Assembly: GCF_964213995.1 (NCBI RefSeq)
Contig: NC_135808.1
Coordinates: 32,426,001 to 32,490,000, forward strand
DNA length: 64,000 nucleotides
Source of the DNA: Mustelus asterias
Taxonomy: Eukaryota
Direction: 5' to 3'
The number at the start of each line of letters is the position of its first letter. Position 1 is the first letter of the stretch. Below, one piece after another: positions 818 through 62,938 of this stretch. The notes under the pieces were generated by a model. That model was not told the origin of the DNA, ran no database searches, and was given only the letters and a program-made list of their open reading frames with translations. The translations under genes were made by a program, and so were the position numbers.

Positions 818-863
818 TGTAAGGTTGTACATTGACACGCTGTTTCTCTCTGCCTGATCTTAC

Positions 864-1124
864 CGGATGTCTGGTTTGTGATCTTCAGCACTGTATTCAG
901 ATTCTCCTTCACCATGTCTGAGTGCGAGATCACCAGTTCTGTGATATAGTCCCAGAATTCAGAGTCGATATTTTCAGCCATGAACCTCTGTCTGCGAATG
1001 CAGCGACGGATATTACTGTCACAATATCCTGTTTGGATACCATCGACCACTGCAGTGCTTGTAACCGCAGGAAAATCTTCCATCCCAGAGACAACAGTGT
1101 ACATCACCGTGTGTGTGTTAGTGT
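864..1124 (-). CDS. MHC class I-like gene A, alpha1 exon (87 codons, phase 1/1)
   Basis: TTTCTTTTTACAG acceptor and GTAAGA donor; translates DTNTHTVMYTVVSGMEDFPAVTSTAVVDGIQTGYCDSNIRRCIRRQRFMAENIDSEFWD...KITNQTS(G), with class I hallmarks YxDS, RQ, FW and the NQT sequon; 261 nt like the alpha1 exons of B and C. Confidence 0.92.
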
Positions 1125-10115: not shown

Positions 10116-10796
10116 TGTAAGGAATAATCATTAAGACAACATATATTGGAAGGAATAATTATTCGGACAAGTAGGAGATAATAATTAACATAGAAGAGAT
10201 AATCACTACTTAAGAAGCTCTCATATATCACATATCTTATTCAGCATATACTTGTACCCTTTTAAGTGCACAATACCTTACCAGGTCAGTACACATGGAT
10301 ACTCACATAAATGAACATAAAGGCTAAAAGAAGTCAAGCAAACACACAGAAGCTGAAAGTAATTTCTTAAATAAACGTGAGAAAGTAAAAAGACTTGGAT
10401 GCCCTACAATGGTTGAACAAACAACAACCTTGGCTGATTAGACAATAAACTTCAGATAAGAAGGCAAGATGTAACCACAATGATATCATAGCACATTTAT
10501 TAGTGACCAATCAGAAAGAAGGCAGATAACGTAGGTCTCGTAAACCATGGTGGCTAACGAAAAGTGGCCTTGGGGTCTGCAACAAAAAAACCTTGACTGT
10601 AAGATAAGAATGATGAAATATGAAGCTAAATGTGTATAAAAAGGACTGTGAGAGCACTGGTTTTTTGGATTCATCTGGAAATCCCGGCTTTATTGAAATG
10701 TATTAGCTAATAAAGCCTTGCTGCCTGGAAGATCAAGACTCAGACTCTCTATTCTGATTGATGAACTCTTCTTGCCGTCCACGGGGAACCACGGCA
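10116..10796 (+). mobile_element. Solo LTR (681 bp) in intron 1 of gene A
   Basis: TG...CA ends, 4-bp TSD ATAT (10112-10115 and 10797-10800), TATAAAA ~10635, AATAAA ~10709; empty site present in gene B (~40850-40865) and gene C. Confidence 0.88.
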
Positions 10797-10889
10797 ATAT
10801 CACCCATTTCAAACTCTCACCAAAAGATTCAAATTCACCCCAGAGAGAGAGAGAGAGAGTGAGAATGGAAAAGTGAATTCTGTACTTAC

Positions 10890-10941
10890 CGGGAGAGACC
10901 CAGGAAAAACACAGGGAGATGGAGAAAAGGATCAGCAACAT
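10890..10941 (-). CDS. MHC class I-like gene A, leader exon (MLLILFSISLCFSWVSP, phase 1)
   Basis: ATG at 10941, hydrophobic signal peptide, G|GTAAGT donor; identical to the leaders of B and C. Confidence 0.9.
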
Positions 10942-11140
10942 TCTGGGAATCCACTGTCCCAATTCCAATCAGTGACTGCGAATTAAACACTCTGAGGATG
11001 AAACAACTTTATAAACTGAGGAGAAACATGAAAAAAACAAAAATTTTATCCAGACTCCATTTTCCTGTCTCAGTCGGACTTAGCTCATTTCCTGATTGCA
11101 GAAGCAGAGGATGACTGATTGGTTAGTCTCAGAAAATTAA

Positions 11141-11204
11141 CCAATTAAAGAGATAAACAGCCAGCCTGTCACTAGTTACCAGGAAGATCAAACTCGTTCA
11201 GGTT
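11141..11204 (-). promoter_or_regulatory. SXY promoter module of gene A
   Basis: Sense strand AACCT-16 bp-CCTGGTAAC-TAGTGACA-21 bp-ATTGG; second CCAAT downstream; IRF-like AAAGTGAAAC at 11245-11254. Confidence 0.8.
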
Positions 11205-11384
11205 CAGGCTGAAAAAAATCTAATCTTTACCCAGCACCTTGCACAAAGTGAAACCTCCCCAAGGACAGCTTTATAAAACAAAGATTGACCCAGAGACACA
11301 CACAGCTCAATGCACAAAAACTGTCTCCAAATTCCAGGGTTGAAGGAGTGTTTTAAAGACAGGCTGCAGAGGGGTGTAGGGAGG

Positions 11385-14300
11385 TGTGGTGAACCATCGT
11401 TGGTTCCCACTGGATAGTACTGAGCCAGGGTCTGGCCAGTACTACAAGTATGTACATATGTTGCTGTTGGGTTAGGGATGGGTTGTGCTACTTGTTGCTG
11501 TTGGGGTTAGGTTGGGGTTGTTACACCTTTGTATTGTAGTGTTATGGTACATCCCAGTCGGGCTCCGCCTCCTGGGAGAGGTATAAAGGTCCCTGCTCTG
11601 GCTGGGACCCCTCAGTCTGGGATCGTGTATATAATTGTTGGCTGCTTCGTTACAGCAAATAAAAACCTTTATTTCCTGAGCATCAAGCCTCGTGTGTGAC
11701 AACGCGCATCAATTTTATTTGCTGTTGTTAAACTCTCGTCGAAGAAAAAAAAAAGAGAGTATGGAGCAGATACTGAAGCCGGAACGCCTTACACTAGATC
11801 CACGTGCGGTGGGCGCCTCTAACACCTTCGACCACTGGCTGAAGTGTTTCGAAGACTACCTGGCAGCCTCCGCAGCGGTCACCACAGATGATGACAGACT
11901 CCATGTCCTCCATGCGAGGGTAAGCGACACTGTCTACCTCGCGATCCGTGCGGCCACCGATTACACAAAGGCCCTCGAGCTTCTGAAGAAGCGTTATATC
12001 AAACCGCCCAATGAAATACACGCTCGTTACCTCTTAGCCACTCGACAACGGCAGTCTGGCGAAACGATGGAGGAATATGCGAACGAGCTCCTACAGCTAG
12101 CCAGGGGCTGTAACTGCAAAGCTGTGTCGGCTGAGCAGAGTATAAACTACCTCGCCCGAGATGCGTTTGTGGTGGGAGTCGGATCGTCGTACATTCGACT
12201 TAAACTGCTGGAGAAAGGTAACCTTGACCTTACCCAGGCAATCGAGCGAGCGGAGATGCTGGAGACGGCCTCCAAAAGCCTAGTATTGTATCCTGAAGAC
12301 CACGTGGAGACAACATGGCAGGAGCAGTCGCCAATCCCTCCTCGTCCCTCGGGTTCAAAATGCCGCGTAATGGCGTGCTCACACTCAGGCCAGACGACGG
12401 CAGCAGCTCCGGGTGGCCCGCGGTGTTACTTCGTTGGGGGAGCGAAGCATACTCGGCAACGGTGTCCCGCTAAGTCTGTGTTGTGCTCCGCCTGCGGTAA
12501 GAAGGGGCACTATTCGAAAGTGTGCCGATCTAAATCTAGGAACGGCAGTGCAGCCTGCGATTCCTCAGAGCCCGGGTCTTTGTCGTCGAAATCATCGAGG
12601 GGTTCGTCCACGTGCGAGGCCAGGACGACGCCATTACGGTCGACGGAGTCGGAGGTGTGTGACCACCAGGGGTCGCTGAGTTTGACGCCATCACCCACGT
12701 GCGACCTATGGGAGCGGCCATGTTGGTCGGCACCGACCGCGAACGACTAGCAGGGGTCCTCCTCCTCTATTTCAGCTGCCTGCAGTGGCGCTCATGAGCC
12801 AACGGTGGCGTCGATCATCCTGGACCAGGCCAAGCCTCATAGACTTGACAAATCTATGATGAACATCCAGGTAAATGACCACGTGATTTATTGTCTGTTT
12901 GACAGCGGGAGCACTGAGAGCTTTATCCACCCAGACACTGTGACGTGGTGTGGACTCCGGATTCAACCTGCCAAACAGACAATTTCTATGGCATCGAGGT
13001 CCCGGTCTGTCACCGTGCGAGGGAGTTGCGTGGTAACTTTGACGGTGCAAGGCACAGTTTACGGGCGTTTCAAGCTCCTAGTGTTGCCGTACCTTTGCGC
13101 GCCAATACTTCTCGGACTAAACTTCATGGTCCACTTGAGGAGTGTAACCCTACAGTACGGTGGGCCACTCCCTTCACTGTCAGTGGGAGAACAGCAGCCT
13201 CCAAATTGCCCAACGCACCCCGCTTGTAGCCTCTCGACGCTGAAGATCACCACACCCTCCCTGTTCCAGAATCTTGTGCCAGGCTGCAAGCCCATCGCGA
13301 CTAAAAGTAGGCGTTACAGCGCTGAGGATCGGATCTTCATTAGATCTGAGGTTCAGCGGCTCCTCAAAGAAAGGATCATACAACCCAGCGCTAGTCCGTG
13401 GAGAGCGCAGGTCGTGGTGGTCAAGAGCGGGAACAAACCCCGGATGGTCATTGACTACAGTCAGACCATTAATCGATATACGCAGCTGGATGCGTATCCT
13501 CTCCCGCGCATATCTGATATGGTCAATCAGATCGTGCAGTACCGGGTGTTCTCCACCATAGACCTCAAGTCTGCCTACCACCAACTCCCCATTCGCCCAG
13601 AGGACCGACAATACACGGCTTTTGAGGCGGATGGTCACTTGTATCACTTTCTCAGGGTTCCCTTTGGTGTCGCCAATGGGGTCTCGGTCTTCCAGCGTGC
13701 TATGGACCGAATGGTCGACCAGAACGGGCTGCGGGCTACCTTCCCGTACCTGCATAATGTCACCATCTGCGGCCATGACCAGCAGAACCACGACACGAAT
13801 CTCCTGAACTTCCTACGCACTGCATCTCGCCTGAACTTGACCTACAACAGGGAGAAGTGTGTGTTTCGTACGCGCCGTTTAGCCATCCTAGGATACGTGG
13901 TGGAAAACGGGGTCATTGGCCCTGATCCAGACCGTATGCACCCCCTTTCTGAACTTCCCTTGCCTGCTAGTGCAAAAGCACTGAGAAGATGCTTAGGCTT
14001 CTTCTCTTATTATGCGCAGTGGGTTCCCAATTACGCGGACAAAGCCCGTCCGCTCATTAAGTCCACTACTTTTCCCCTAACGCCAGAGGCCCGATTGGCC
14101 TTTGATAAATTAAAAGCCGACATCGCGAAAGCTACGATGCACGCTGTTGATGAGTCCATCCCCTTTCAGGTGGCGAGCGATGCATCTGATTTCGCCCTGG
14201 CCGCCACACTTAACCAGGCGGGCAGGCCCGTCGCATTTTTTTCCCGCACCCTCCAAGGCCCCGAAATCCAGCATTCAGCGGTGGAAAAGGAGGCCCAGGC

Positions 14301-16127
14301 CATTGTGGAGGCCGTCAGGCACTGGCGCCATTACTTGGCGGGAAAACGGTTCATCCTGATCACGGACCAGCGGTCCGTGGCGTTCATGTTTAATAACACG
14401 CAGAGGGGCAAGATCAAGAATGACAAGATCTTGCGGTGGAGAATTGAACTCTCCACCTATAACTATGACATCATGTATCATCCAGGGAAACTCAATGAGC
14501 CCTCGGATGCCCTCTCACGTTGAACATGCGCCAGTATACAGGAGGACCGTTTGCAGGCTCTCCATAATGACCTATGCCATCCTGGGGTCACTCGGCTCTA
14601 CCACTTTATAAAAGCCCGCAATCTGCCCTACTCGGTGGAGGACGTCAGGTCAGTAACAAGAAGCTGTCGGGTATGCGCGGAATGCAAACCGCACTTTTAC
14701 CCACCTGACCGGGCACATTTAGTCAAGGCCACTCGTCCCTTCGAGAGACTGAGTGTCGATTTTAAGGGCCCCCTTCCCTCAACAGATCGGAATGTGTACT
14801 TCCTCAACATCATTGACGAGTACTCGAGGTTCCCTTTTGTTGTTCCCTGCTCTGATACATCCGCTGCCACGGTTATCAAGGCATTCCGTGATCTCTTTAC
14901 CCTGTTCGGGTACCCCGGCTACATTCACAGCGACAGGGGCTCGTCGTTCATGAGCGATGACTTGAGGCAATTCCTGCTCTCATACGGGATTGCCTCTAGT
15001 AGGACCACGAGCTACAACCCTCGGGGTAACGGACAGGTGGAACGTGAGAATGCTACAGTCTGGAAGGCTGTCTTACTGGCGTTGAAGTCAAAATGCCTTC
15101 CAGTCTCCCGTTGGCAAGAGGTGCTCCCTGATGCGCTCCATTCTATTCGCTCACTCCTGTGTACGGCAACCAATGCTGCTCCCCATGAGAGGATGTTTTC
15201 ATTCCCTCGGAAGTCTTCCTCGGGGACCTCTTTACCGTCTTGGTTGACGTACTCAGGACCCGTCCTCCTGCGGCGACATGTAAGGGCCCTCAAGTCCGTC
15301 CCGTTGGTCGAACAGGTCCATCTCCTCCACGCCAACCCTCAGTATGCCTATGTGGCATACCCTGACGGGCGAGAGGACACGGTCTCGATCCGAGACCTGG
15401 CGCCAGCAGGGGACGTAGCAACCCCTGTCGCTCCCATACCCCCTGTTACAAACCCTTTAACTCTTGTTTCTCCCCCGGACACGGCGCGGGCAGCATCGGG
15501 ACCATTGCTTACTCCCGTGTACAGCTTGCCTGAGTCCAGAGGATGGTCGCCACTTCAGGGCGTGTCGGGACTCCATGGACTACCGTCACCTCAGGGTCAA
15601 CCGGCCTGTGAGTCTGTGGAGGAACAGCTGGACATCACCTTGGGGAGAACGCCACCGCAAGTGCCTACTACGGTGTCACCGCCGGTATTGAGGAGTTCAC
15701 AACGACGGTGCGGTCCCCCTGACCGTCTGAACTTATAGACTGATGACAAATTATTCTGTTTTTGTACCCCGCCGGTCTTTGTTCTCAAAGGAGGGGTGAA
15801 TGTGGTGAACCATCGTTGGTTCCCACTGGATAGTACTGAGCCAGGGTCTGGCCAGTACTACAAGTATGTACATATGTTGCTGTTGGGTTAGGGATGGGTT
15901 GTGCTACTTGTTGCTGTTGGGGTTAGGTTGGGGTTGTTACACCTTTGTATTGTAGTGTTGTAGTACATCCCAGTCGGGCTCCGCCTCCTGGGAGAGGTAT
16001 AAAGGTCCCTGCTCTGGCTGGGACCCCTCAGTCTGGGATCGTGTATATAATTGTTGGCTGCTTCGTTACAGCAAATAAAAGCCTTTATTTCCTGAGCATC
16101 AAGCCTCGTGTATGATAACGCGCATCA
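11385..16127 (+). mobile_element. Full-length Ty3/Gypsy LTR retrotransposon, inactive
   Basis: 327-bp LTRs 11385-11711 and 15801-16127 (TG...CA, ~5 mismatches), 5-bp TSD GGAGG, PPT AAAGGAGGGGTGAA, domain order gag-PR-RT-RH-IN. Confidence 0.97.
11761..15738 (+). pseudogene. Gypsy gag-pol polyprotein, single frame with two in-frame stops
   Basis: Zn knuckle CSACGKKGHYSKVC, protease LFDSGS, RT motif YLHN (catalytic D lost), RNase H DASD, integrase HHCC and DDE; TAG 12748-12750 and TGA 14521-14523. Confidence 0.93.
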
Positions 16128-30700: not shown

Positions 30701-30922
30701 ATGTGAGTGTGTGCGGTGGCTTTAATGATCAATATTACACCTGGTCTGGGCTGATCACACAAAGGAAGATCAGACAGGCAACAAGATGTGTTTATACGTG
30801 TGTATCTGTGTGTGGGAATTAAATCCGTTCATTCAACACAGTGTCCTGTACTCCCAGTACTGGAGATTCCCCACACTCACTCTGTCCCCTCTGTTCTACA
30901 TTCCCCTCTCTCTGATTCTTAC

Positions 30923-31033
30923 CTCTCCGTTGTCTTTTCCAGATGATTATTCCGAATATAACAGCCAGTGCTGGGATCACTGATCCGATTATAATTCCAA
31001 GATGGGAGCGTCCCCAACTGTTTTCCGGGATTT
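30923..31033 (-). CDS. Gene B connecting peptide/transmembrane exon (EIPENSWGRSHLGIIIGSVIPALAVIFGIIIWKRQRR)
   Basis: TGTGTTTCAG acceptor, GTAAGA donor, 111 nt, ~21-residue hydrophobic stretch followed by a basic stop-transfer sequence. Confidence 0.88.
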
Positions 31034-31776
31034 CTGAAACACAATTGAATAATATGAGGATTGTCTCTGTTCCCAGATCCATTCCCAGTTCTCTGTTCAT
31101 TGGGGACAATTGGAACTGAAGCTGCCCATTGGGAATTGATGGGATTGGCTGAAATGCTGGTTTTACCCTCGCCTCCATTTCACTCTCCAGTGAAGTGACG
31201 AAAGATTCCCATTGATGGTGGTGTCAAAGCCGTGTTATCCCAATCCCATAGGATACCTTCCTGGCCAGTTCAGTTCTAATTCTCCCCAATGTCTGTGTGT
31301 CCTGTCCTTGTTCAATCCCCAGGGTTACATTGTACGGCCCAGGAGGCAGCATCACTGATGTTTTCACATCAAACTTCAAAGGGATGAGGAATAAACTGAT
31401 CGCTGGAAACTGGGCTGAGCTGAGAATGAGGAAATCCACAGATAAACAGAGCAAATGCTTCAAAAGAAGCACTTGGTCCAATCCAGCAGCAGGACTTTGT
31501 CCTAAACAACTGCACTGACCCCACCATGGTCAACACATGGAATAAGTGAGAGAATCCAACTCAAAGAAAAGACTTCACAAAATGTCCAGAGATTGAGTTC
31601 CAGACACTGAGACAAGTATCAGCTGGTCAAAGAGAGACAGGATGGATTGTGAAGGGAATCTCATGTCTGCCTCATCTCAGTGAGTGTGATGAGGAGCACA
31701 ATAACATGGTGGAGAAGGGAGTGTCTATGGACCTGCAGGGAACACGCACACACAGTACAGTTCGACAGTTCCTTAC

Positions 31777-32415
31777 CCGACTGATGGAGCTTGGGCTCTG
31801 CCAGGCTGCTGTGTTCAATTCGACAGGAGTATTGATCCTCATCCCCAGCATTTATTTCAATCTCTTTCTGGATCTGATGGGTCCCATCGTGGTTCGGTCG
31901 AACCCCCGAGGATAGTGTCTCAGACATTACCTCTCCATTCCTTAGCCAGTTCACCTCGATGTCTACAGGATAAAAGCCAGTAACCAGGCAGGAGAGAGTG
32001 AGCGACTTGTACTGACTATTGGGTTCACTATTGGGCGGCATGGTAGCACAGTGCTTAGCACTGCTGCTTCACAGCTCCAGGGTCCTGGGTTCGATTCCCG
32101 GCTCGGGTCACTGTCTGTGTGGAGTTTGCACATTCTCCTCGTGTCTGCGTGGGTTTCCTCCGGGTGCTCCGGTTTCCTCCCACAGCCCAAAGATGTGCGG
32201 GTTAGGTTGATTGGCCAGGTTAAGAAAAAAATTGCCCCTTAGAGTCCTGGGATGTGTAGGTTAGAGGGATTAGCGGGTAAATATGTGGGGGTAGGGCCTG
32301 GGTGGGATTGTGGTCGGTGCGGACTCGATGGGCCGAATGGCCTCCTTCTGCACTGTAGGGTTTCTATGACTTCTATGACTTCTATGACTTCTGGAGATGA
32401 AGACTTCAGGCTGAA
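31777..32415 (-). CDS. Gene B alpha3 (Ig C1) exon, 279 nt plus 360-nt SINE insertion
   Basis: LSCLVTGFYP, VNW, PNHDGTHQ, YSCRIEHSSL; 275/279 nt identical to gene C alpha3 once 32030-32389 is removed. Confidence 0.95.
32030..32389 (+). mobile_element. tRNA-derived SINE inserted antisense into the gene B alpha3 exon
   Basis: Full SINE from GGGCGGCA to the (TTCTATGAC)n tail; gene C shows the empty site. Confidence 0.95.
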
Positions 32416-38461: not shown

Positions 38462-39734
38462 AATAACTATCTCTTCTATGAAATATTTAAAATCCTTTTA
38501 TGACAGTATAAACGCAATTAAAAGTATTCAGGAATAATGTTATGACCTATTATCAATCCACATTATCAGCTCACAGCTTACAGAAAATAGGAACATTTTT
38601 AACAACTAAATAAAATGAATTATAAGGGCTAATGAAAAGGGTGGTGTTGGTGTTTAATCAAGGAGGAGGCACCTACATTTGCTAAAAATGATGCAATCTG
38701 TCCCAGAAAGGTATAACGTACAGATTTCTCTCAAATAGATTAATAGTATTGTAATTTCAATGTATTTTCAACCCTCCAAAGTTTCTCCTTTTGCCAAGGG
38801 AGCTAGATATCTTAAAGCAGATAGCTTAAAGTAGAAGATCCTGCCGCTGTCAATGGATCCGTCCCATTGGCTGCACCCCACTCTGCTGGGAAACCTACAG
38901 TGGGCACCATCGGGGGGACCAGATCCCACTGGTGTAAACAGCCAAAAAGTTCTGGCCTATGTTTTTAATATTTTATAGTCATTAATGTTGTGATGCACAT
39001 ATCCATTGTAAATAAGTTAGAAAAAGAATATGTCTCTTGTAACTTTTCTGTAAGCAGAACACTCCTCTGTTGTATCTTCTGAAAGTGAGAAGATTCATAT
39101 TTTTGAGTGCAGACCCTGCACCCTTATCATATCTGGTTAATTATAAAGGGCCCAATAAATTACTTAACAGGCTCCCTGGAAGGTGGTAATCTTTCTTGAT
39201 GGGTCCTTACTGGGGCCCATTTTTCACTTCATTAATATCTGTGGATTGCTCTCCTCACATTCTCCATCCATGAGTGACTGTCTCTGTCCTTGATAATCTC
39301 CACTCCCTTATCTCAGGGAGAGGTTTCTGACATTGTCCTTTCACACTGAGTCCTGGATTCACATTGTCTATTGTGTAATAGTGGAGAAGGCCAATCTCAG
39401 CCCCATATATATCAATATACATTGAGACACAGCAAGAAAACAGCAATGAGCCAACAAGCTGCCCTTTCCTGGATCATCTCAACCCTCTCACCATATTCTC
39501 AACTTCTTCATTCATAACCCCATCTTCCCACCTTCATCAATGTCAACACAACTTTGTACAGATCTCAATCAGAATAGGGAGAAGGAACAGAATCACTCTC
39601 CGTGTCTCCCTGATTCATGGTCCCACACACTGTACACCCCAGGGACACAGTCTGCAGTATAACTGTGGCTGGGTACCTGTCTGACACACATTAAACAGGA
39701 CAGTCAGTGGGAGATTGGACATCAGTGATCTTAC

Positions 39735-39995
39735 CGGATGTCTGGTTTGTGTTCTTCAGGATCGTATTCAGATTCTTCATTGCAATGTCGGATCGTGCGT
39801 TCCCAATATCTGTGAGCATATTCCAGAATTCCTCCTTGAAATGTTCTTCCATGAACTTTTGCCTGGGGATCATCTGACGGATATCACTGTCATAATAATC
39901 TATTTCCACTCCATTGATCATTGCAACACCACTAACAACAGGAAAGTCTTTAATACCAGAGATTGCTGTGTATATCACAGTAAATGAGCTGGTAT
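39735..39995 (-). CDS. Gene B alpha1 exon (87 codons)
   Basis: TTTCTTTTACAG acceptor, GTAAGA donor; DTSSFTVIYTAISGIKDFP...YYDSDIRQMIPRQKF...FWN...NQTS(G). Confidence 0.94.
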
Positions 39996-40536
39996 CTGTA
40001 AAAGAAACAATTAAATTCACAGGTTAATAGACCTTTCCACACATTCCCAGCTGATCACAGTGAGAGCCATCCACACTGTGACAAACTCTAATAATCCTCC
40101 ACTTTATCCCAATGTCAGAATCCTCTCTAATATTAGAAACAGGGGGATGGACAATCCAGAGCAGGATCTCCACTGTCCTTCACAGAGCTTTTTAATCATC
40201 CCTTTATACACGCTCACATGGATGTTGGTGGTCTGAGATAACCCGGAATATTCAATCAAGAGAGAATCACAGCTGATCCTGGGGTGGGTGAAACACGGAT
40301 TATCCTTCTCCTCTCCATAGCGTTTCGAAGACTTTAGACCAGGAGTGATGAAGCTGTTTTGCTTCTCCCAATCAATACGAAAATTAAAATTGTCCATTTG
40401 AAGCATTTTCCATTTGCTCCAAGCTTCTCTGCTCTGGGTGTTTGTACATCCTGCTGTCAGGAGAGCTGAACACCAATCCCATCAGAGTCTTCCACACTGT
40501 GCTGACTTCAATGGTGTCAAATATCAGGTTGGCTGT

Positions 40537-40832
40537 TGACGCGCGATAAATCACACGGGAGGCTGGATGTACCCGGGAAATAAAGGCTTTTATTGCCAAC
40601 AATAACGGAGCTACTATATACAATATACAATCCCAGACTAAAGGGTCACCAGGCAGAGCAGTGACCTTTATACCTCTCCCAGAAGGCGGAGCCAACTGGC
40701 GTGTACCATAGGACTATATTAACAGGTAGAACAGCCCAACCCTAACCCCAACAGTAACATATCTACAGACTCATAGTACTGGCCAGACCATGGCTCAGCA
40801 CTCCTGGTGGTAACCAACAATGGTTCAGCACA
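40537..40832 (-). mobile_element. Solo LTR (296 bp) related to the Gypsy LTRs at 11385 and 15801, in gene B intron 1
   Basis: Reverse complement aligns to the Gypsy LTR (GAGAGGTATAAAGGTC, AATAAAAGCCTTTATTTCC); 5-bp TSD GCTGT; empty site in gene C near 45645. Confidence 0.92.
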
Positions 40833-40942
40833 GCTGTATAACAGCGTCTGAGCAAACATCACCCATTTCAAACTCTCACCAAAAGATTCAAATTCACCCC
40901 AGAGAGAGAGAGTGAGAATGGAAGAGTGAATTCTGTACTTAC

Positions 40943-40994
40943 CGGGAGAGACCCAGGAAAAACACAGGGAGATGGAGAAAAGGATCAGCAACAT
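40943..40994 (-). CDS. Gene B leader exon
   Basis: ATG 40994, MLLILFSISLCFSWVSP, G|GTAAGT. Confidence 0.92.
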
Positions 40995-41193
40995 TCTGGG
41001 AATCCACTGTCCCAATTCCAATCAGTGACTGGGAATTAAACACTCTGAGGAGGAAACAACTTTATAAACTGAGGGGAAACTTGAAAAAAACAAAAATTTT
41101 ATCCAGACTCCATTTTCCTGTCTCAGTCGAACTTTGCTCATTTCCTTATTGCAGAAGCAGAGGATGACTGAATGGTTAGTCTCAGAAAATTAA

Positions 41194-41257
41194 CCAATTT
41201 AAGAGATAAACAGTTAACCTGTCACTCGTTACCAGGAAGATCAAACTCAGACAGGTT
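41194..41257 (-). promoter_or_regulatory. SXY promoter module of gene B
   Basis: AACCT-16 bp-CCTGGTAAC-GAGTGACA-21 bp-ATTGG; IRF-like AAAGTGAAAC at 41302-41311. Confidence 0.8.
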
Positions 41258-42099
41258 CCGATTCAGGCTGAAAAATCTAATCTTTCTCCAGCGCCTTTCA
41301 CAAAGTGAAACCTCCCCAAGGGCAGCTTTATAAAACAAAGATTGACCCAGAGACACACACAGCTCAGTGCACAAAAACTGCTCAAAGTTCTAAAGTGTTT
41401 TAGAGAGAGGCTGCAGAGGGGTGTAGGGAGGGGATTACAGAGTGAAGGACCGAGGTTACTAAAGGCACAGTCCCCAGTGGGGCGATTCTAATCCCTGATA
41501 CTGGAGATTTCCGAATGAGAGGAACACAGAGATCTCACAGAGTTTGTGAAACTGGAGGAGATTACAGAAATAGGAAGGGGCGAGGACATGGAGAGATTTC
41601 AATTTTAAAATTCTCAAGATCCACTGCAGCAACTCACCAAGGTTGCTGTTCCATTGAGTGTTCGAGATATAGATTCTTTGGGGCTTGTCTATCTCCCAAC
41701 GTAACCTGCATGAGACTGAAGTTTGTTCAAACATTCCTCTGTATTTACAGCTTCAATATGTGTCTGAGGATCTCTGTATGAGGCTAAAACTCTTCCCCGC
41801 TCCAGAGCCACAGCAATGTGGTTGGCTTTTAACTGTCCTTGGGCAATAAATGCTGGCCAGCCAGCGGTGCCCAGGTCCCACGAATGAATAAAGAAAACAG
41901 ATTAAAGATGTGCAGGTTAGGTGGATTTGCCATGCTATATTGCTCCTTAGTGTCCCAAGACGTGCAGGTTAGGGGGATTAGTGGGGTTAGGGGATAGGGC
42001 AGCGTCTGGGCCTGAGTAAGATGCTCTGTTGGTACATACTCAATGGGCCAAATGGTCTCCTACTGCACTGATAGGGATTCTATCATGCTATGAAAATCC

Positions 42100-44559: not shown

Positions 44560-45170
44560 GCACAGGGAGTCCAATACAAACTGAAAGAACAGCATCTAAT
44601 CTTTGAATTTAAGCATCTAATTAGGAATTGTACAGCGTTCTGGACTGAACATTGAGTTCAACAACTTCAGAGCATGAATTCTTCCTTCCACCTTCGCCCC
44701 ATTTCCATTTATTTTATTTCTTTTTCTTGTTCATCCATTTTTATTACTTTATATTATTATCGTCATTTTTATTTTTAATTCCTTCCATTGTTTCATTTCT
44801 CCACTTCTAAAATCTCACTTTCCATTTTGTTTCCCCCTCCCCCCACCCCATGAGGACCCTCTGCCACATGCCTCAGGTTGTTTGACATTCTGTACCTCTG
44901 TTCTACTGTTTACACATTATGATCTCTTAATGGACGCTATTCGCTCCATTCCTGGCCTTTATCACCACCATTTGCATTCCCTTTGTCTTTTTGCCTTTTC
45001 CATCCCTATCCATTATAGCCCCCTCCACCCCACCCTTACAGTATGAATCTCGTCCTATTTTCTTTGCCTTCAGCTCTGACGAAGAGTCATCCAGACTCGA
45101 AACATTGGCTCTTTTCTCTCTCCACAGATCTGTCAGACCTGCTGAGATTTTCCAGCATTTTCTGTTGTGT
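44560..45170 (+). mobile_element. Penelope-like element 3' fragment abutting the gene C promoter
   Basis: KLKEQHLIF...GLNIEFNNFRA* (GIY-YIG C-terminus); hammerhead-like core at 45076-45102. Confidence 0.75.
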
Positions 45171-45178
45171 TGAATAAC

Positions 45179-45240
45179 AACCTGTCTGAGTTTAATCTGC
45201 CTGGTAACTGCTGACATTACATTCTTTATCCTGTTATTGG
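45179..45240 (+). promoter_or_regulatory. SXY promoter module of gene C
   Basis: AACCT(45179)-16 bp-CCTGGTAAC(45200)-TGCTGACA-19 bp-ATTGG(45236); second CCAAT at 45259. Confidence 0.8.
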
Positions 45241-45488
45241 CTATTTTTCTGAGGCTAACCAATCAGAGCTTGTCCAGGAAGTTTAAGTTCAGGAAATGAT
45301 CAAACTGGAAATAAACAACAATAAAAGAGGGAAATGCGATGACTGGTCTGAACTGTTTCTGTCCTTCTGAATCTACTTGGACTTCTTGTTTATTGTGTGT
45401 TTTCCAATCACAATAAACAGTGTTAGATTCCTCCTCAGAGTGTTTAATTCGCAGTCACTGATTGGAATTGGGACAGTGGATTCCCAGA

Positions 45489-45540
45489 ATGTTGCTGATC
45501 CTTTTCTCCATCTCCCTGTGTTTTTCCTGGGTCTCTCCCG
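45489..45540 (+). CDS. MHC class I-like gene C leader exon
   Basis: ATG 45489, MLLILFSISLCFSWVSP, G|GTAAGT. Confidence 0.92.
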
Positions 45541-45812
45541 GTAAGTACAGAATTCACTCTTCCATTCTCACTCTCTCTCTCTGGGGTGAATTTGAATCTT
45601 TTGGTGAGAGTTTGAAATGGGTGATGTTTGCTCAGACGCTGTTATACAGCCAGCCTGATATTTGACACCATTGAAGTCAGCACAGTGTGGAAGACTCTGA
45701 TGGGATTGGTGTTCAGCTCTCCTGACAGCAGGATGTACAAACACCCAGAGCAGAGAAGCTTGGAGCAAATGGAAAATGCTTCAAATGGACAATTTTAATT
45801 TTCACTTCGATT

Positions 45813-46080: not shown

Positions 46081-46788
46081 TTATTAATTTTAAAAATTGG
46101 GAGAAGCAAAACAGTTTCATCACCCCTGGTCTAAAGTCTTCGAAACACTGCGGAGAGGAGAAGGATAATCCATGTTTCACCCACCCCGGGATCAGCTGTG
46201 ATGCCCTCATGGTTGAATAGGTCAGGTTATCTTTGAATAGGTCAGGTTATCTCAGACCACCAACATCCTAGTGAGTATGAGTAAAGCTCTGTGAAGGACA
46301 GTGGAGATCCTGCTCTGGATTATCCATCCCCCTGTTTGATGGTGAGACTGTTCGTATCGTGACTGTCTCCCCCTCCCCCCTCCCCCCCCCCTCCCCCCCC
46401 CCCCCCCCCCCCCCCACCCCCCCATCCCATGGTGCGGGGTTCTGCTCACAACCAACAGTGAAACTAAAACTGGATCACGAGACACTCTTCCCTTCCAGTG
46501 ATTTAAGGCTGCTGCAATTTAAAAACAGATTACTGAAAAGATGATAAACAGCAGACCAGTCCGGAGTGACTCTGATTCCGTGTTTACTCCCTGCTCTGAG
46601 ACTCTGCAGCACCTAATTCTCACCCAGTTTAATGTGATTCTGTTTCTAATATCAGACAGGATTCTGACATTGGGATAAAGTGGGGGATTATTGGAGTTTG
46701 TCACTGTGTGGATGGCTCTCACTGTGACCCCAGGGGGTAGTGTGTGGAAATGTCTATTAACCTGCCACTGTAATTGGTTATTTTCCAG

Positions 46789-47049
46789 CTACTGATTCAA
46801 TAATTGCAGTATACACCGCGGTCTCCGGAATGACAGATTTCCCCGAGGTGACTAAAGTTGCGACGGTCAATGGAATTCAGGTGAATTATCACGACAGTAA
46901 CATTCGACAGACCATCCCCAGACAGCAGTTCCTGATGGAATCTTTCAAACAGGCCTATTGGGATGATCTGTCTAGTATTGGAAACAGACATTCGACCGTC
47001 ACAAAGGATTATCTGTTTACAGTCATGAAGAGCATGAACCAGACATCAG
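46789..47049 (+). CDS. Gene C alpha1 exon (87 codons)
   Basis: TTATTTTCCAG acceptor, GTAAGA donor; ATDSIIAVYTAVSGMTDFPEV...YHDSNIRQTIPRQQF...YWD...NQTS(G). Confidence 0.94.
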
Positions 47050-47054
47050 GTAAG

Positions 47055-49495
47055 AAACATAGAAAATAGGTGCAGGAGTAGGCCATTCGGCCCTTCAAGC
47101 CTGCACCACCATTCAATATGATCATGGCTGATATGCACTTTCAGTATCCCACTCCCACTTTCTCTCCATAGCCTTTGATCCCTTTAGCCACAAGGGCCCC
47201 GTCCAGCTCCCTCTTGAACATATTGAACAAACTGCCCCTAACAGCTTTCTGTGGTAAAGAATTCCACAGGTTCACAACTCTGAGTGAAGAAGTTCATCCT
47301 CATCTCAGTTCTGAATGGCTTATCCCTTATTCTTCGACGATGACCACTAGTTCTGGACTTCCCCAACATTGGGAACATTCTTCCCGCATCTAGCCTGTCC
47401 AGTCCCATCAGGATTTTATATGTTTCTATGAGATCCCATTTCACTCTTCTAAATTCCAGTGAGTACAAGCCCAGCTGATCCCATCTCTCTTTATATGTCA
47501 GTCCTCCCATTCCAGGAATCAGTCTGGTGAACCTTCGCTGGACTCCCTCAATAGCAAGACTGTTCTTCCTCAGACTAGGAGACCACAGCTGCACATAATA
47601 CACAAGATGTGGTCTCACCAAGGCTCTGTATAACTGCAGCAAGACATCCCTACTCAAACCCTCTTGCTATGAAGGGCAGCATGCCATTAGCTTTCCTCAC
47701 CTCCTGCTATACCTGCATGCCAACCTTCAGCGACTGTTCCACCATGACACCCAGGCCAGGTTGCACTTCACCTTTTCCTAAACTGCCACCATTCAGATGG
47801 CAATAATCTTCCTTCCTGTTTTTGCCTCCAAAGTGGATAACCTCACATTGATCCACATTATGTTGTACTTGCCCATTCAGCCAGCCTGTCCAAGTCACCT
47901 TGCAGCCTTTTAGCATCATCCTCACAGCACACACTGCCACCCAGCTTAGTGTCGTCTGCAAATTTGGAGATTTTGCATTCAATTTCTTTGTCCAAAGCAT
48001 TAATGTACATTGTGAATAGCTGGGGTCCCAGCACTGGACCCTGCGATACCCCTGCCAATCTGAAATGGACTCGTTTATTCCCACTCTCAGCTTCCTGTCT
48101 ACTAACCAGTTCTCTATCCACATCAATATTACCCCCAATACCATGAGCTTTAATTTTCCTCACTAATCTCTTGTATGGGACCTTGTCAAAAGCTTTTTGA
48201 AAGTCCAGATACACAACATCCACTGATTCTCCCTTGTCCACTCTACTGGTCACATCCTCAATGAATTCCAGAAGATTTGTGAAGCACAATTTCCCTTTAG
48301 TGAATCCATGCTGACTTGGACCAATCCTGTCACTGCTTTCCATCTTTAATAATTGAGTCCAGCATTTTCTCCACCACCGATGTCAGGCTAATCAGTCTAT
48401 AACTCCCCGTTTTCTCTCTCCCTTTTTTAAAAAGTGGGGTTACATTAGCTGCCCTCCAGTCCCTTGGAACTCTTTAAGAGTCTATAGAATGCTGGAAAAT
48501 GATCAGCAATGCGTCCACTATTTTTGTGATCACTTCCTTAAGTACTCTGGGATCTAGAGCATCAGGCCCTGGGGACTTATCGGCTTTTGATCCCAGCAAT
48601 TTCCCCAATACAATTTCCTGCCTAATAAGGATCTCCTTCAGTTCCTCCTTCATGCGAGACCCTCTGTTCCCTAGTATTTCTGGAAGGTTACTTGTGTCCT
48701 CCTTAGTGAAGACAGATCCAAAGTATTTGGTCAGCTGGTCTGCCATCTCTTTGTTGTCCATTATGAATTCATATGATCCTAACTGTAAGGGACCTACATT
48801 TGTCTTCACCAGTCTTTTTCTCTTCACATATCTATGGAAGGTTTGCAGTCAGTTTTTATGTTTTCTGCAAGCCTACTCTGGTATTTTATTTTCCCCTTCT
48901 GAATTAAACCCTTTGTCCTCCTCTGCTGGATTTTAAATTTCTCCCAGTTCTCGGGTTTGCTGCTTTTTCTGGCCAATTTATCTGCCTTCTCTTTGGCTTT
49001 AACACTATCCCTGATTTCCCTTGTTAGCCATGGTTGAGCCACCTTCCCCATTTTACTCTTACGCTAGACGGGGATGTACAGTTGTTGAAGTTCATCCATG
49101 AGTTCTTTATATGTCTGCCATTGCCTGTCTACTGTCAACCCCTTAAGTATTCTTTGCCAGCTTATCCTAGCCAATGCACGTCTCGTACCATCAAAATGAG
49201 CTTTTCTCAAGTTCAGGACCCCAGTCTCAGAGTTAAATATGTCACTCTCCATCTTAATGAAGAATTCTACAATCTTCCTCAAAGGATCTCACACCACAAG
49301 CTAAGTAATCCTCTCTCATTACACACAATACTCAGTTTAGGATGGCCTGCCCTCTAGTTAGTCCTCGACATATTGGTCGAGAAAACCAATCCTTATACAT
49401 TCCAATAAATCCTCCTCCATTGCATGGCTTCCAGTTTGGTGAGCCCAATGAATATGCAGATTGAAGTCACCCCTAATAACTGCTGTACCTTTATT
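47055..49495 (-). mobile_element. Degraded CR1 LINE starting just after the gene C alpha1 donor
   Basis: GDFN, PWLT, KSPGPD, DFQKAFDKVP and FADD on the minus strand. Confidence 0.92.
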
Positions 49496-49679: not shown

Positions 49680-50745
49680 ACACTCAGTCCACTCTAGCAC
49701 TGAACCCTGGGATACTGAACACAGTCCATCCCAGCACTGAACCCAGGGATCTGGACTCAGTTCCCCAACACAGATCCCTGGGACACTGAACTCCATCCCC
49801 CAGCACTGACCCCCTGGGACACTGAACTCCATCCCCCAGCACTGACCCCTGGTACACTGAACTCCATCCCCCAGCACTGACCCCCTGGGACACTGAACTC
49901 AGTCCCCCAGCACTGACCCCTGGGACACTGAACTCAGTCCCCCAGCACAGACCCCTGGGACACTGAACTCCATCCCCCAGCACTGACCCCCTGGGACACT
50001 GAACTCAGTCCCCCAGCACTGACCCCTGGGACACTGAACTCAGTCCCCCAGCACAGACCCCTGGGACACTGAACTCCATCCCCCAGCACTGCCCCCTGGG
50101 ACACTGAACTCAGACCATCTCCCAGCACTGACCCCCTGGGAAACTGAACTCAGTCCCCCAGCACTGACCCCTGGGACACTGAACTCAGTCCCCCAGCACT
50201 GACCCCTGGGACACTGAACTCAGTCCATCTCCCAGCACTGACCCCCTGGGAAACTGAACTCAGTCCCCCAGCACTGACCCCTGGGACACTGAACTCAGTC
50301 CCCCAGCACTGACCCCTGGGACACTGAACTCAGACCCCCATCACTGACCCCCTGGGACACTGAACTCCATCCCCCAGCACTGCCCCCTGGGACACTGAAC
50401 TCAGTCCCCCAGCACTGACCCCTGGGACACTGAACTCCATCCCCCAGCACTGACCCCTGGGACACTGAACTCAGTCCCCCAGCACTGACCCCTGGGACAC
50501 TGAACTCCATCCCCCAGCACTGACCCCTGGTACACTGAACTCAGTCCCCCAGCACTGACCCCTGGGACACTGAACTCAGACCCCCAGCACTGACCCCTGG
50601 GACACTGAACTCAGTCCCCCAGCACTGACCCCCTGGGACACTGAACTCCATCCCCCAGCTCTGACCCCTGGGACACTGAACTCCGTCACCCAGCACTGAC
50701 CCCTGGGACACTGAACTCAGACCCCCAGCACTGACACCTGGGACA
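49680..50745. repeat. Minisatellite, 31-36 bp unit (CTGGGACACTGAACTCAGTCCCCCAGCACTGACCC), ~30 copies, gene C intron 2
   Basis: Reverse complement of the 61-817 array. Confidence 0.95.
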
Positions 50746-51114
50746 CATAATCACTCATTTCTATCTGATACTAGATCCCTTTCCCTCTGGTAACATTGTG
50801 ACACTAATCCCCATTTCTGATACTAGATCCCCGATCCCCTCTGATCACACTGGGACTCTAATCCCCATTTCTATCTGATGGTAGATCACTGATCCCCTCT
50901 GATCACACTGCGACTCTAATCCCCATTTCTATCTGATACTAGATCACTGATCCCCTCTGATCACACTGCGACTCTAATCCCCATTTCTATCTGATACTAG
51001 ATCACTGATCCCCGCTGATCACACTGCGACTCTAATCCCCATTTCTATCTGATACTAGATCACTGATCCCCGCTGATCACACTGCGACTCTAATCCCCAT
51101 TTCAAAGAGCTTCG

Positions 51115-54470: not shown

Positions 54471-54747
54471 GCTTTCTGATACTAGATCCCCAATCCTCTC
54501 TAATCACACTGCGACTCAAATCCCCATCTCAATCTGATACTGGATCCCTGATCCCCTCTGATCACACTGTGACTCAGATCCCCATTTCTACCTGATACTA
54601 GATATCCGATCCCCTCTGATCACACTGTGACTCTAATCCCCATTTCAATCTGATACTAGATCTCCGATCCTCTCTGATCACACTGACTCTAATCCCCATT
54701 TCTATCTGATACCAGATCCCTGATCCCCTCTGATCACACTGTGACTG

Positions 54748-56569: not shown

Positions 56570-57687
56570 GACTCTAATCTCCATTTCAATCTGATACTAG
56601 ATCCCCGATCCCCTCTGATGACACCATGACTCTAATCCCCATATCTATCTGAGACCAGATCCCTTTATCCTCTGATCATACTGTGACTCTAACCCCCATT
56701 TCTATCTGATACTAGATCCCTGATCCCCTCTGATCACACAGTGACTATAATCCCATTTATATCTGATACTAGATCCCTGATCTGCTCTGATCACACTGCG
56801 ACTCTAATCCCCATTTCTATCTGATACGAGATCCCTTTCCCCTCGAATCACACTGTGACTTGAATCCCCATTTCTATTTTACACCAGATGCCCCATGAAC
56901 ACACTGTGACTCTAATCCCCATTTATATCTAATACCAGATCCCTGTTCCCCTCTGATCACACTGTGACTCTATTCCCCATCTCAATCTGATACTAGATCC
57001 CTGATCCCCTCTGATCACACTGCGACTCAAATCCCCATTTCTATCTGATACTATATCTCTGATGCCCTCTGATCACACTGTGACTCTAATCCCCATTTCA
57101 ACCTGATACTAGATCCCTGATCCCCTCTGATTACACTGCGACTCAAATGTCCATTTCTGATACTAGATCTCCAAATTACTCTGATCACAGTGACTCTAAT
57201 CCCCATTTCTATACTAAATCACTGATCCCCTCTAATTACATTGCGACTCTAATCCCCATTTATATCTGATACTAGATCCCTGATCCCCTCTGATCACACT
57301 GTGACTCTCACCCCCATTTCTGTCTGATACTAGATCTCTGATCCCCTCTGATCATACTGTGACTTAAATCCCCATTCTATTTGATACCAGATCCCTGATC
57401 CCCTCTGATCACACTGTGACTCTAATCCCCATTTCTACCTGATTCTAGATCCCCATCCCCTCAGATCATATTGCGACTCAAATCCCCATTTCTGATACAA
57501 GATCCCTGATCCCCCCTGATCACACTGTGACTCTAATCCCCATTTCTGATACTAGATCCCTGATCCCCTCTGATCACACTGTGACTCTAATCCCCATTTC
57601 TATCTGATACTAGATCCCTTTTCGCTCTGATCTGATTGTTAGTGATTTTCCATTAATGATAGATCATTAATTATCAATCTCTGACAG

Positions 57688-57963
57688 GAATTCACACTTT
57701 CCAGTTGATTATGATTGTTGAGGTCACTGAAGACGGCTCCATTAAGAGATCGATGCGGTTTGGATTTGATGGAAAGGACTATATTAGTTTAGAGCCAGAC
57801 AGAATGAGATGGGTCGCAACCAATCACTTCGCAGTGAAGACTAAAGAGAAATGGGATCTGAATGAATCCTGGAACAAGCACTGGAAAAGGACTTTGGAAG
57901 TACATTGTGTGCAGTATTTGAAAAGATATTTACAAGCTGGAAAGGAACATTTTGAACGGAAAG
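57688..57963 (+). CDS. Gene C alpha2 exon (92 codons)
   Basis: CTCTGACAG acceptor, GTATCT donor; GIHTFQLIMIVE...FGFDGKDYISL...TKEKW...LEVHCVQYLKRYLQAGKE. Confidence 0.94.
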
Positions 57964-60225: not shown

Positions 60226-60476
60226 ATAACTGCTTTAGGGCAGGTTTAAAGAGGCAGCACAAGGTTTAGAGAAAGTCCCTGCCCCCAGCAGTGTAGTTGA
60301 ATGTAACAGCAGATTCTGGTGGTGAAGGGACTGTGTCTCTGAGCTTTTTAGATAATTTATTGACTTTCTTGAGCTGTTTCTAAAACTAATTCAGAGAGCA
60401 GGGGGATCTTCAATTTGTAGTCATGACCATCTCCCTGTTAGCTCCACGAGATCCCTGTCTAGATTCCCAATTGGGT

Positions 60477-62450
60477 GCTGAGACCCCCTTCACACAGCCA
60501 ATTGGCACAGTTCCTGCAGAGACCCCCTTCACACTGCCAATTGGCACAGTTCCTGCAGAGACCCCCTTCACACTGCCAATTGGCACAGTTCCTGCAGAGA
60601 CCCCCTTCACACAGCCAATTGGCACAGTTCCTGCAGAGACCCCACTTCACACAGCCAATTGGCACAGTTCCTGCAGAGACCCCCTTCACACTGCCAATTG
60701 GCACAGTTCCTGCACAGACCCCCTTCACACTGCCAATTGGCACAGTTCCTGCACAGACCCCCTTCACACTGCCAACTGGCACAGTTCCTGCAGAGACCCC
60801 CTTCGCACTGCCAATTGGCACAGTTCCTGCACAGACCCCCTTCACACTGCCAACTGGCACAGTTCCTGCAGAGACCCCCTTCGCACTGCCAATTGGCACA
60901 GTTCCTGCAGAGACCCCCTTCACACTGCCAATTGGCACAGTTCCTGCACAGACCCCCTTCACACTGCCAATTGGCACAGTTCCTGCACAGACCCCCTTCA
61001 CACTGCCAACTGGCACAGTTCCTGCAGAGACCCCCTTCGCACTGCCAATTGGCACAGTTCCTGCAGAGACCCCCTTCACACTGCCAATTGGCACAGTTCC
61101 TGCAGAGACCCCCTTCACACTGCCAATTGGCACAGTTCCTGCAGAGACCCTTCACACTGCCAACTGGCACAGTTCCTGCAGAGACCCCCTTCGCACTGCC
61201 AATTGGCACAGTTCCTGCAAAGACCCCCTTCACACTGCCAATTGGCACAGTTCCTGCACAGACCCCCTTCACACTGCCAATTGGCACAGTTCCTGAAGAG
61301 ACCCTTCACACTGCCAATTGGCACAGTTCCTGAAGAGACCCTTCACACTGCCAATTGGCACAGTTCCTGCACAGACCCCCTTCGCACTGCCAATTGGCAC
61401 AGTTCCTGCAGAGACCCCCTTTCACACTGCCAATTGGCACAGTTCCTGCACAGACCCCCTTCACACTGCCAACTGGCACAGTTCCTGCAGAGACCCCCTT
61501 CGCACTGCCAATTGGCACAGTTCCTGCACAGACCCCCTTCACACTGCCAATTGGCACAGTTCCTGAAGAGACCCTTCACACTGCCAATTGGCACAGTTCC
61601 TGCACAGACCCCCTTCGCACTGCCAATTGGCACAGTTCCTGCAGAGACCCCCTTTCACACTGCCAATTGGCACAGTTCCTGCACAGACCCCCTTCACACT
61701 GCCAACTGGCACAGTTCCTGCAGAGACCCCCTTCGCACTGCCAATTGGCACAGTTCCTGCACAGACCCCCTTCACACTGCCAATTGGCACAGTTCCTGAA
61801 GAGACCCTTCACACTGCCAATTGGCACAGTTCCTGCAGAGACCCTTCACATTGTCAATTGGCACAGCTCCTGCAGAGACGCTTTACACTGCCAATTGGCG
61901 CAGTTCCTGCAGAGACCCCCTTCACACTGCCAACTGGCGCAGTTCCTGCAGAGACCCCCTTCACACTGCCAATTGGCGCAGTTCCTGCAGAGACCATTTT
62001 CACACTGCCAATTGGCGCAGTTCCTGCAGAGACCATTTTCACACTGCCAATTGGCACAGTTCCTGCAGAGACCCCCTTCACACTGCCAACTGGCGCAGTT
62101 CCTGCAGAGACCCCCTTCACACTGCCAATTGGCGCAGTTCCTGCAGAGACCATTTTCACACTGCCAATTGGCACAGTTCCTGCAGAGACCCCTTTCACAC
62201 TGAGAATTAGCATGATTCCTGCAGAGACCCCATTCACACGGCCAATTGGCACAGTTCCTACAGAGACCCTTCACACTGCCAATTGGCACAGTTCCTGCGG
62301 AGACCCCATTCACACGGCCAATTGGCACAGTTCCTACAGAGACCCTTCACACTGCCAATTGGCACAGTTCCTGCAGAGACCCTTCACACTGCCAATTGGC
62401 ACAGTTCCTACAGAGACCCCATTCACACTGCCAATTGGCACAGTTCCTGC
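60477..62450. repeat. 39-bp minisatellite (CTGCAGAGACCCCCTTCACACTGCCAATTGGCACAGTTC), ~50 copies, gene C intron 3
   Basis: Visible tandem units; 13-residue periodic ORFs on both strands. Confidence 0.96.
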
Positions 62451-62626: not shown

Positions 62627-62905
62627 TTCAGCCTGACGTCTTCATCTCCAGAAGTGAACCCAATAGTCAGTACAAGTCGCTCACTCTCTCCTGCCTGGTT
62701 ACTGGCTTTTATCCTGCAGACATCGAGGTGACCTGGCTAAGGAATGGAGAGGTAATGTCTGAGACACTATCCTCGGGGGTTCGACCGAACCACGATGGGA
62801 CCCATCAGATCCAGAAAGAGATTGAAATAAATGCTGGGGATGAGGATCAATACTCCTGTCAAATTGAACACAGCAGCCTGGCAGAGCCCAAGCTCCATCA
62901 GTCGG
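62627..62905 (+). CDS. Gene C alpha3 (Ig C1) exon (93 codons)
   Basis: CCCTTTCCCATTACAG acceptor, GTAAGG donor; C-x-TGFYP, W, PNHDGT, YSC-x-IEHSSL. Confidence 0.96.
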
Positions 62906-62938
62906 GTAAGGAACTGTACTGGATTCGTCTTCGCTGCT

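Follow-up and report, generated by a model that had tools for sequence, protein, structure and literature searches.

In the mouse, MHC promoters are described as platforms on which RFX binds the X1 box, CREB/ATF binds the X2 box and NF-Y binds the Y box, with the S box selecting the co-activator (PMC4374748, PMC7281430). Both the S box and the 16-bp spacing between S and X matter for this selection, and the X boxes are interchangeable for NLRC5 (PMC4374748); NLRC5 occupies several nonclassical mouse genes as well (PMC4374748, Ludigs et al. 2015). We counted the mouse registers by hand from the reporter primers published in PMC4374748, which gives AACCT-N16-X1-N3-TGACG-N20-ATTGG for H2-K and GACCT-N16-X1-N3-TGATG-N19-ATTGG for H2-Eb. 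The class I layout is drawn as ISRE, SXY, CCAAT and TATA (legend in PMC7281430; PMC1971071 for salmon UBA).

Beyond the mouse, the W/S, X2 and Y boxes have already been reported in teleost class I promoters (PMC7573153, PMC1971071), and a review describes the SXY module as highly conserved across vertebrates. Opossum modules of classes I and II have been published, and the class II ones lie at most 273 bp from the coding start. For sharks, a search by title or abstract start found no paper on SXY or MHC promoters among the best matches listed. The word "promoter" is absent from the main text of PMC10751288 and PMC12562908; the main text of PMC8713811 does not mention promoters, and PMC7866136 does not mention fish.

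Here we describe a cartilaginous-fish locus, using "the window" for the whole 64-kb stretch of Mustelus asterias DNA that was analysed. Our preferred reading, which we hold to be likely, is that an SXY module in the mouse register sits upstream of three paralogous nonclassical class I genes (A, B and C), where it would assemble an RFX, CREB/ATF and NF-Y complex that recruits an NLR co-activator, probably NLRC5.

Three SXY modules in the mouse register

A sequence-only reading had placed one module upstream of each gene, and all three are present where it put them, with the boxes and spacings that it gave:

11200..11204, 11175..11183 and 11167..11171, minus strand: S box (AACCT), X1 box (CCTGGTAAC) and X2 box (TGACA) of gene A, by box-letter match
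11141..11145, minus strand: Y box (inverted CCAAT) of gene A, by box-letter match
41194..41257, minus strand: module of gene B, with S at 41253-41257, X1 at 41228-41236, X2 at 41220-41224 and Y at 41194-41198
45179..45240, plus strand: module of gene C, with S at 45179-45183, X1 at 45200-45208, X2 at 45212-45216 and Y at 45236-45240

The shared formula for A/B/C is AACCT-N16-CCTGGTAAC-N3-TGACA-N21/21/19-ATTGG: the S-X1 spacer is 16 bp and the X1-X2 spacer 3 bp in every case, and the X2-Y spacer is 21, 21 and 19 bp in A, B and C. The modules lie upstream of their genes in sense orientation; in A, B and C the S box precedes the ATG by 263, 263 and 310 bp. Exact copies of CCTGGTAAC occur just three times in the 64-kb window, all inside these modules. 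X1 alone is not enriched in the window: 24 matches have at most one mismatch, with 16.6 expected.

We scored the window with the box letters and spacings of mouse H2-K and H2-Eb only (maximum score 24). A, B and C each scored 21/24 and were the top three among ~128,000 window positions, and a score of 21 was reached anywhere in just 1 of 60 random Markov sequences of 64 kb. A chance origin of the modules is very unlikely, even if they are taken as one event, because the best-scoring sites fall at the above distances before MHC start codons and in sense orientation. The next-best site, at 47424 within LINE-like sequence, scored 20/24. We rejected it as a further module, since this score is at chance level and occurs in 10 of the 60 random sequences. 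A search of JGI metagenome contigs gave 0 hits to the full module, which says little about a shark.

Box by box, the shark S core AACCTG equals the H2-K core and is one base off the H2-Eb core. The shark X1 scores 8/9 in the mouse-only scorer, where a match to either mouse X1 counts; in register and by hand, it matches H2-Eb at 6/9 positions and H2-K at 5/9. It also fits the RFX half-site RGYAAC. X2 (TGACA) stands at the exact position, 3 bp after X1, and matches TGACG at 4/5 positions and TGATG at 3/5. By the same counting, the X2-Y spacers of 21, 21 and 19 bp compare with 20 bp in H2-K and 19 bp in H2-Eb.

The earlier description of these promoters was incomplete, as it overlooked three elements, namely a second CCAAT, a TATA-like site and, in A and B but not in C, an ISRE-like site:

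11245..11254, minus strand: ISRE-like site GTTTCACTTT of gene A, which starts 50 bp before S and looks like the one with which the H2-K primer begins
41302..41311, minus strand: ISRE-like site of gene B, which starts 54 bp before S
11118..11122, minus strand: second CCAAT of gene A, in sense orientation, 18 bp after Y
41171..41175, minus strand: second CCAAT position of gene B, which reads CCATT here and CCAAT in contigs of runs X1 and X8
45259..45263, plus strand: second CCAAT of gene C, in sense orientation, 18 bp after Y
11008..11013, minus strand: TATA-like site (TATAAA) of gene A, called from sequence only

The TATA-like position lies ~70 bp before the ATG and reads TATAAA in A and B and AATAAA in C. 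The second CCAAT (AACCAATCAG) fits the NF-Y consensus better than the Y box does. We found no ISRE-like site upstream of C, where a high-copy repeat sits, and a kB pattern (enhancer A) had no match in any of the three proximal promoters. By motif content, the combination of ISRE-like site, SXY module, second CCAAT and TATA-like site is a class I-type layout.

The genes behind the modules

We worked out the gene structures from six-frame translation and tblastn:

10890..10941, minus strand: leader exon of gene A, coding part (17 aa, phase 1 donor)
861..1124, minus strand: alpha1 exon of gene A, 91% identical to P0026; the remaining gene lies off the window
40943..40994, minus strand: leader exon of gene B, coding part
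39732..39995, minus strand: alpha1 exon of gene B, 100% identical to P0044
32533..32811, minus strand: alpha2 exon of gene B
31777..32413 (ends approximate), minus strand: alpha3 exon of gene B, split by a 360-bp SINE-like repeat
30920..31036, minus strand: transmembrane exon of gene B
45489-45540, plus strand: leader exon of gene C
46786..47052, plus strand: alpha1 exon of gene C, 100% identical to P0001 residues 17-105
57688..57963, plus strand: alpha2 exon of gene C, 100% identical to a Mustelus asterias protein
62628..62906 (ends approximate), plus strand: alpha3 exon of gene C, 98.9% identical to B at the DNA level

Genes B and C are arranged head to head, and C spans 45489 to ~62906. P0044, the public model for gene B, has MHC_I and C1-set domains and shows an unbroken alpha3 despite the insertion in B. 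The SINE-like repeat (32028-32387) carries four in-frame stop codons. Gene B is probably either in decay or a copy that skips alpha3; its boxes are intact although the alpha3 exon is disrupted. The alpha3 sequences of B and C (31765-32029 and 62653-62917) are 98.9% identical as DNA and their alpha1 domains just ~48% identical as protein, a constant stalk with a variable groove. The "double" proteins of 611, 694 and 845 aa (P0001-P0003) are probably fused models of neighbouring genes and not real tandem molecules.

The genes had been called probable shark nonclassical genes, and we agree: the class I exons match shark proteins, those of B and C proteins of Mustelus asterias (84 of the 85 protein hits are named shark proteins, one is unnamed and none is from a ray), and classical anchor residues are replaced in B and C. 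Classical MHC class Ia molecules have a set of peptide-anchoring residues and an alpha2 disulfide (C101). A comparison by eye with the supplementary alignment of PMC10751288 shows that Y7, R84, Y159 and C101 are replaced in B and C, for which reason we consider the two nonclassical; T143, K146 and W147 are kept. In that supplement, the closest sequence by eye is the nurse shark query "Gcirratum_UCA_NODE_26056", and both proteins are far from UAA, UBA and UDA. Together with 24 further shark rows, B, C and an A-like protein form a group that is separated from UDA at 100/100. To our knowledge, UEA is a multigene family of sharks and not of rays. It is described as multicopy and as lying beside UDA (PMC10751288, PMC12562908), and we infer that A, B and C belong to this shark class Ib family; the parts of the PMC10751288 supplement that we consulted contain no sequence labelled UEA. 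A white shark relative, LOC121291255, is listed there as MHC-Ib, with a model that runs into a UDA-like gene. On the white shark map, this relative is at 80.1 Mb, B2M is at 78.3 Mb and class II genes are at 75.9-76.5 Mb.

Two repeats lie close to the modules:

11385..16127, plus strand: LTR retroelement with protease, RT, RNase H and integrase, ~180 bp upstream of the S box of gene A
~45046-45166, no strand assigned: very high-copy repeat that ends ~12 bp before the S box of gene C

We judge the LTR element to be young. Its TG...CA LTRs are 98.5% identical, it is flanked by a 5-bp target duplication, and B has no insertion at the corresponding site. The ORFs of the element are separated by stops near 12748 and 14521. 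Solo LTR-like sequence in intron 1 of gene B (40536-40835) is 70% identical to the LTRs of this element. The repeat upstream of C had no match in an Rfam scan. It contains a string like a hammerhead core (CTGACGA, a 5-bp stem and GAAA, 45076-45102), which we take to be of the kind found in Penelope-type repeats. Among tandem repeats, a 35-bp minisatellite is common to intron 2 of A (60-820) and of C (49682-50746), and the introns of gene C also hold a family of 58-bp arrays (50748-51103, 54475-54746 and 56570-57619) and a 39-bp array (60476-62450). The paralogues and their promoters thus likely differ, as C has no ISRE-like site, A has the LTR element and B has the alpha3 insertion.

Box conservation and the leader block

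Within the window, the boxes are identical at 24/24 positions in every pair of modules. The spacers are identical at 22/40 positions for A-C (Fisher p = 3e-5), 27/41 for B-C (p = 6e-4) and 32/40 for A-B (p = 0.017). Over 595 bp, promoters A and B share 91% identity, so that together they count as a single data point; the three modules are real, but the "three promoters" of the sequence-only reading come down to two types, A/B and C. The claim that the surroundings of the C module had diverged is borne out by the spacers as a whole (22/40 and 27/41) but not by the S-X spacer (14/16 against B) or by the 18 bp after Y (15/18 against B). What had been taken for divergence of the 5' flank of C is in fact the insertion of the very high-copy repeat at ~45046-45166.

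Contigs from other organisms qualify the constancy of the boxes, which had been presented as invariant. The B-type module, in 14 contigs from 4 runs, varies at 5/24 box positions and 11/40 spacer positions (p = 0.39), so the boxes stand out from the spacers among the window paralogues but not across all of these contigs. When the positions that are unique to one divergent contig are dropped, 1/24 box and 9/40 spacer positions vary, a borderline contrast (p = 0.049); a 3-bp S-box deletion in another contig is left out of both box counts. In run X3, the divergent contig has broken X2 and Y boxes and two others have an S box that is changed or partly deleted, so that S, X2 or Y is changed in 3/5 contigs of this run. 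Of the 14 B-type contigs, 7 span the X1 box, and none of these 7 has a listed change in it. In C-type contigs, all 6 of the in-module differences among those listed sit in the X2-Y spacer (the listing is complete for the run X1 contig only). Runs X1, X3 and X8 each contain separate C-type and A/B-type contigs, which implies that the two types split before those organisms did. Judged from these comparisons, the main lines conserve the module, and some copies of it are decaying.

A third promoter type (run X1 record 2 and run X8 record 13) has the same X1 and X2 and, in a hand reading of loose ends, an X2-Y spacer of only ~16 bp.

Downstream of the modules, part of each gene has been homogenised:

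45428..45650, plus strand: homogenised block of gene C (5' UTR, leader exon and first part of intron 1), which B 40833-41055 matches at 99.6% identity

The first 201 bp of the C block are 95.7% identical to A 10796-11002. The block starts just past the TATA-like position, so that the SXY module is not part of it. Because the module lies outside the stretch of 99.6% identity between B and C, recent conversion does not explain the identity of the boxes. A GAS-like sequence (TTCCCAGAA) overlaps the start codon in A, B and C, where it comprises the last 8 bases before the ATG and its A (45481-45489, for example); this position falls inside the homogenised block.

The 17-residue leader of UEA-like genes is also found in shark UDA proteins (the P0086-P0093 set). 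We compared leaders in 6 species that have both kinds, using hand-picked complete UEA-like leaders (1-10 per species). In 5 of the 6, the UDA leader equals the majority UEA-like leader of the same species (two of the five share one variant); in the sixth, it is one residue off, in a tie with Mustelus. Yet the alpha1-alpha2 identity of UDA and UEA-like proteins is ~23-33%, with one value of 11% that is likely from an exon-skipping isoform. Ray UDA leaders are related but diverged. The shared leader could arise from gene models that borrow exon 1 of a neighbour, but the same leader is present in a nurse shark nr record (P0087) and in a protein from a short contig (P0090), which runs counter to exon borrowing. 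Within a species, then, UEA-like genes and the distant UDA lineage appear to have had their leader exons homogenised. Among the best matches listed, we found no published report of a shared shark leader by title or abstract start.

A broader and tentative idea, which we think improbable on balance but worth stating, is that genes of the UDA/UEA cluster are modular: each would keep its own old SXY promoter, with or without an interferon site, and would share one continually homogenised cassette of 5' UTR and leader that even overwrites the leader of UDA. If so, very different class Ib molecules would be placed under one enhanceosome and one signal peptide, and they might share a leader-derived self signal, as in the ligands of HLA-E.

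Co-activators and comparison with known systems

The module is most likely functional. By analogy with the mouse, RFX would bind X1, a bZIP dimer (CREB/ATF) would bind X2, and NF-Y would bind both Y and the second CCAAT, with the S box as the co-activator selector; the platform would then recruit an NLR co-activator, probably NLRC5. In A and B, the ISRE-like site may add an IRF input, and since C is without this site, the paralogues would differ in interferon inducibility. NLRC5 is our best guess because the S core equals that of H2-K and the layout is class I-like. The assignment is weak because X1 is nearer to that of the class II gene H2-Eb (6/9) than to that of H2-K (5/9).

This X1 comparison, made by hand, points to a rival that we regard as rather unlikely and that differs from our preferred reading in the co-activator alone: the module may be of the CIITA type (class II-like) or a dual-use ancestral element, with expression in antigen-presenting cells. 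According to a review, zebrafish NLRC5 activated class II genes (PMC12436146), so fish may not share the division of labour seen in mammals. The shark modules nevertheless share the S core of H2-K and have a TGAC-type X2, their ISRE-like, CCAAT and TATA-like sites are class I-like, and the X boxes of the mouse were interchangeable for NLRC5 (PMC4374748).

We give somewhat less credence to a second rival, in which the module derives from an SXY element but now serves as a basal NF-Y/RFX/IRF promoter, with neither NLRC5 nor CIITA. It would suit the presence of an ISRE-like site in A and B, as well as the better NF-Y match at the second CCAAT than at Y, and the third promoter type, with its seemingly shorter X2-Y spacer, points the same way. 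In salmon cells, moreover, IRF1 and STAT1, and not the enhanceosome, are argued to be the main drivers of induction by IFN-gamma, and in the SHK-1 line MHC genes were induced although no RFX5 transcripts could be detected (PMC7573153). Because of these data, a reading without the enhanceosome stays in play. Against it, both promoter types retain the S box at a distance of exactly 16 bp from X.

Least probable, and in our view very unlikely, is that the shared motifs now have no function and were passively carried along by duplication and gene conversion: the 91% identity of A and B, the conversion in exon 1 (99.6%) and alpha3 (98.9%), the intact boxes of a damaged gene B and the broken boxes in run X3 contigs would fit, but the module lies outside the converted block, identity is 24/24 in the boxes against 55-66% in the interleaved spacers, and passive copying cannot account for the match to the mouse register.

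Returning to our preferred reading, of an enhanceosome that probably recruits NLRC5, the shark module is an extension of a known mechanism and not a new one. That the module originated in the jawed-vertebrate ancestor is a reasonable inference, largely anticipated by the teleost data, and the result is for this reason more a confirmation than a surprise. It does show the MHC promoter switch base for base in a cartilaginous fish, in keeping with that ancestor having had it. That an expanded nonclassical family has kept the module suggests co-regulation with antigen presentation, and the A/B-type promoters, which have the ISRE-like site, and the C-type promoter, which lacks it, form a small panel for the age of the division of labour between NLRC5 and CIITA.

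The shark genes resemble mouse H2-K (PMC4374748) in the AACCTG S core, the 16-bp S-X1 and 3-bp X1-X2 spacers, the TGAC-type X2, the ATTGG ~20 bp beyond X2 and, in A and B, an ISRE-like site upstream. They differ in X1 (a match at only 5/9 positions), in having TGACA at X2, in that no kB site was found in the shark promoters, and in the distance from the ISRE-like site to S, which is 40-44 bp in A and B and ~6 bp in H2-K. With the CIITA-dependent class II gene H2-Eb, they share the register, X1 at 6/9 positions and, in gene C, the 19-bp X2-Y spacer; H2-Eb has GACCT at S and TGATG at X2, and the shark genes are class I. Like the shark UEA lineage, the window genes are multicopy, and the hits to them are all from sharks where named. 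The salmonid UBA promoters (PMC1971071, PMC7573153) likewise have an ISRE, W/S, site alpha/X2 and enhancer B/Y, but UBA genes are classical teleost genes and shark A, B and C are nonclassical. Finally, many nonclassical genes are described as having no S-X-Y module (PMC11695323), whereas shark A, B and C have retained it.
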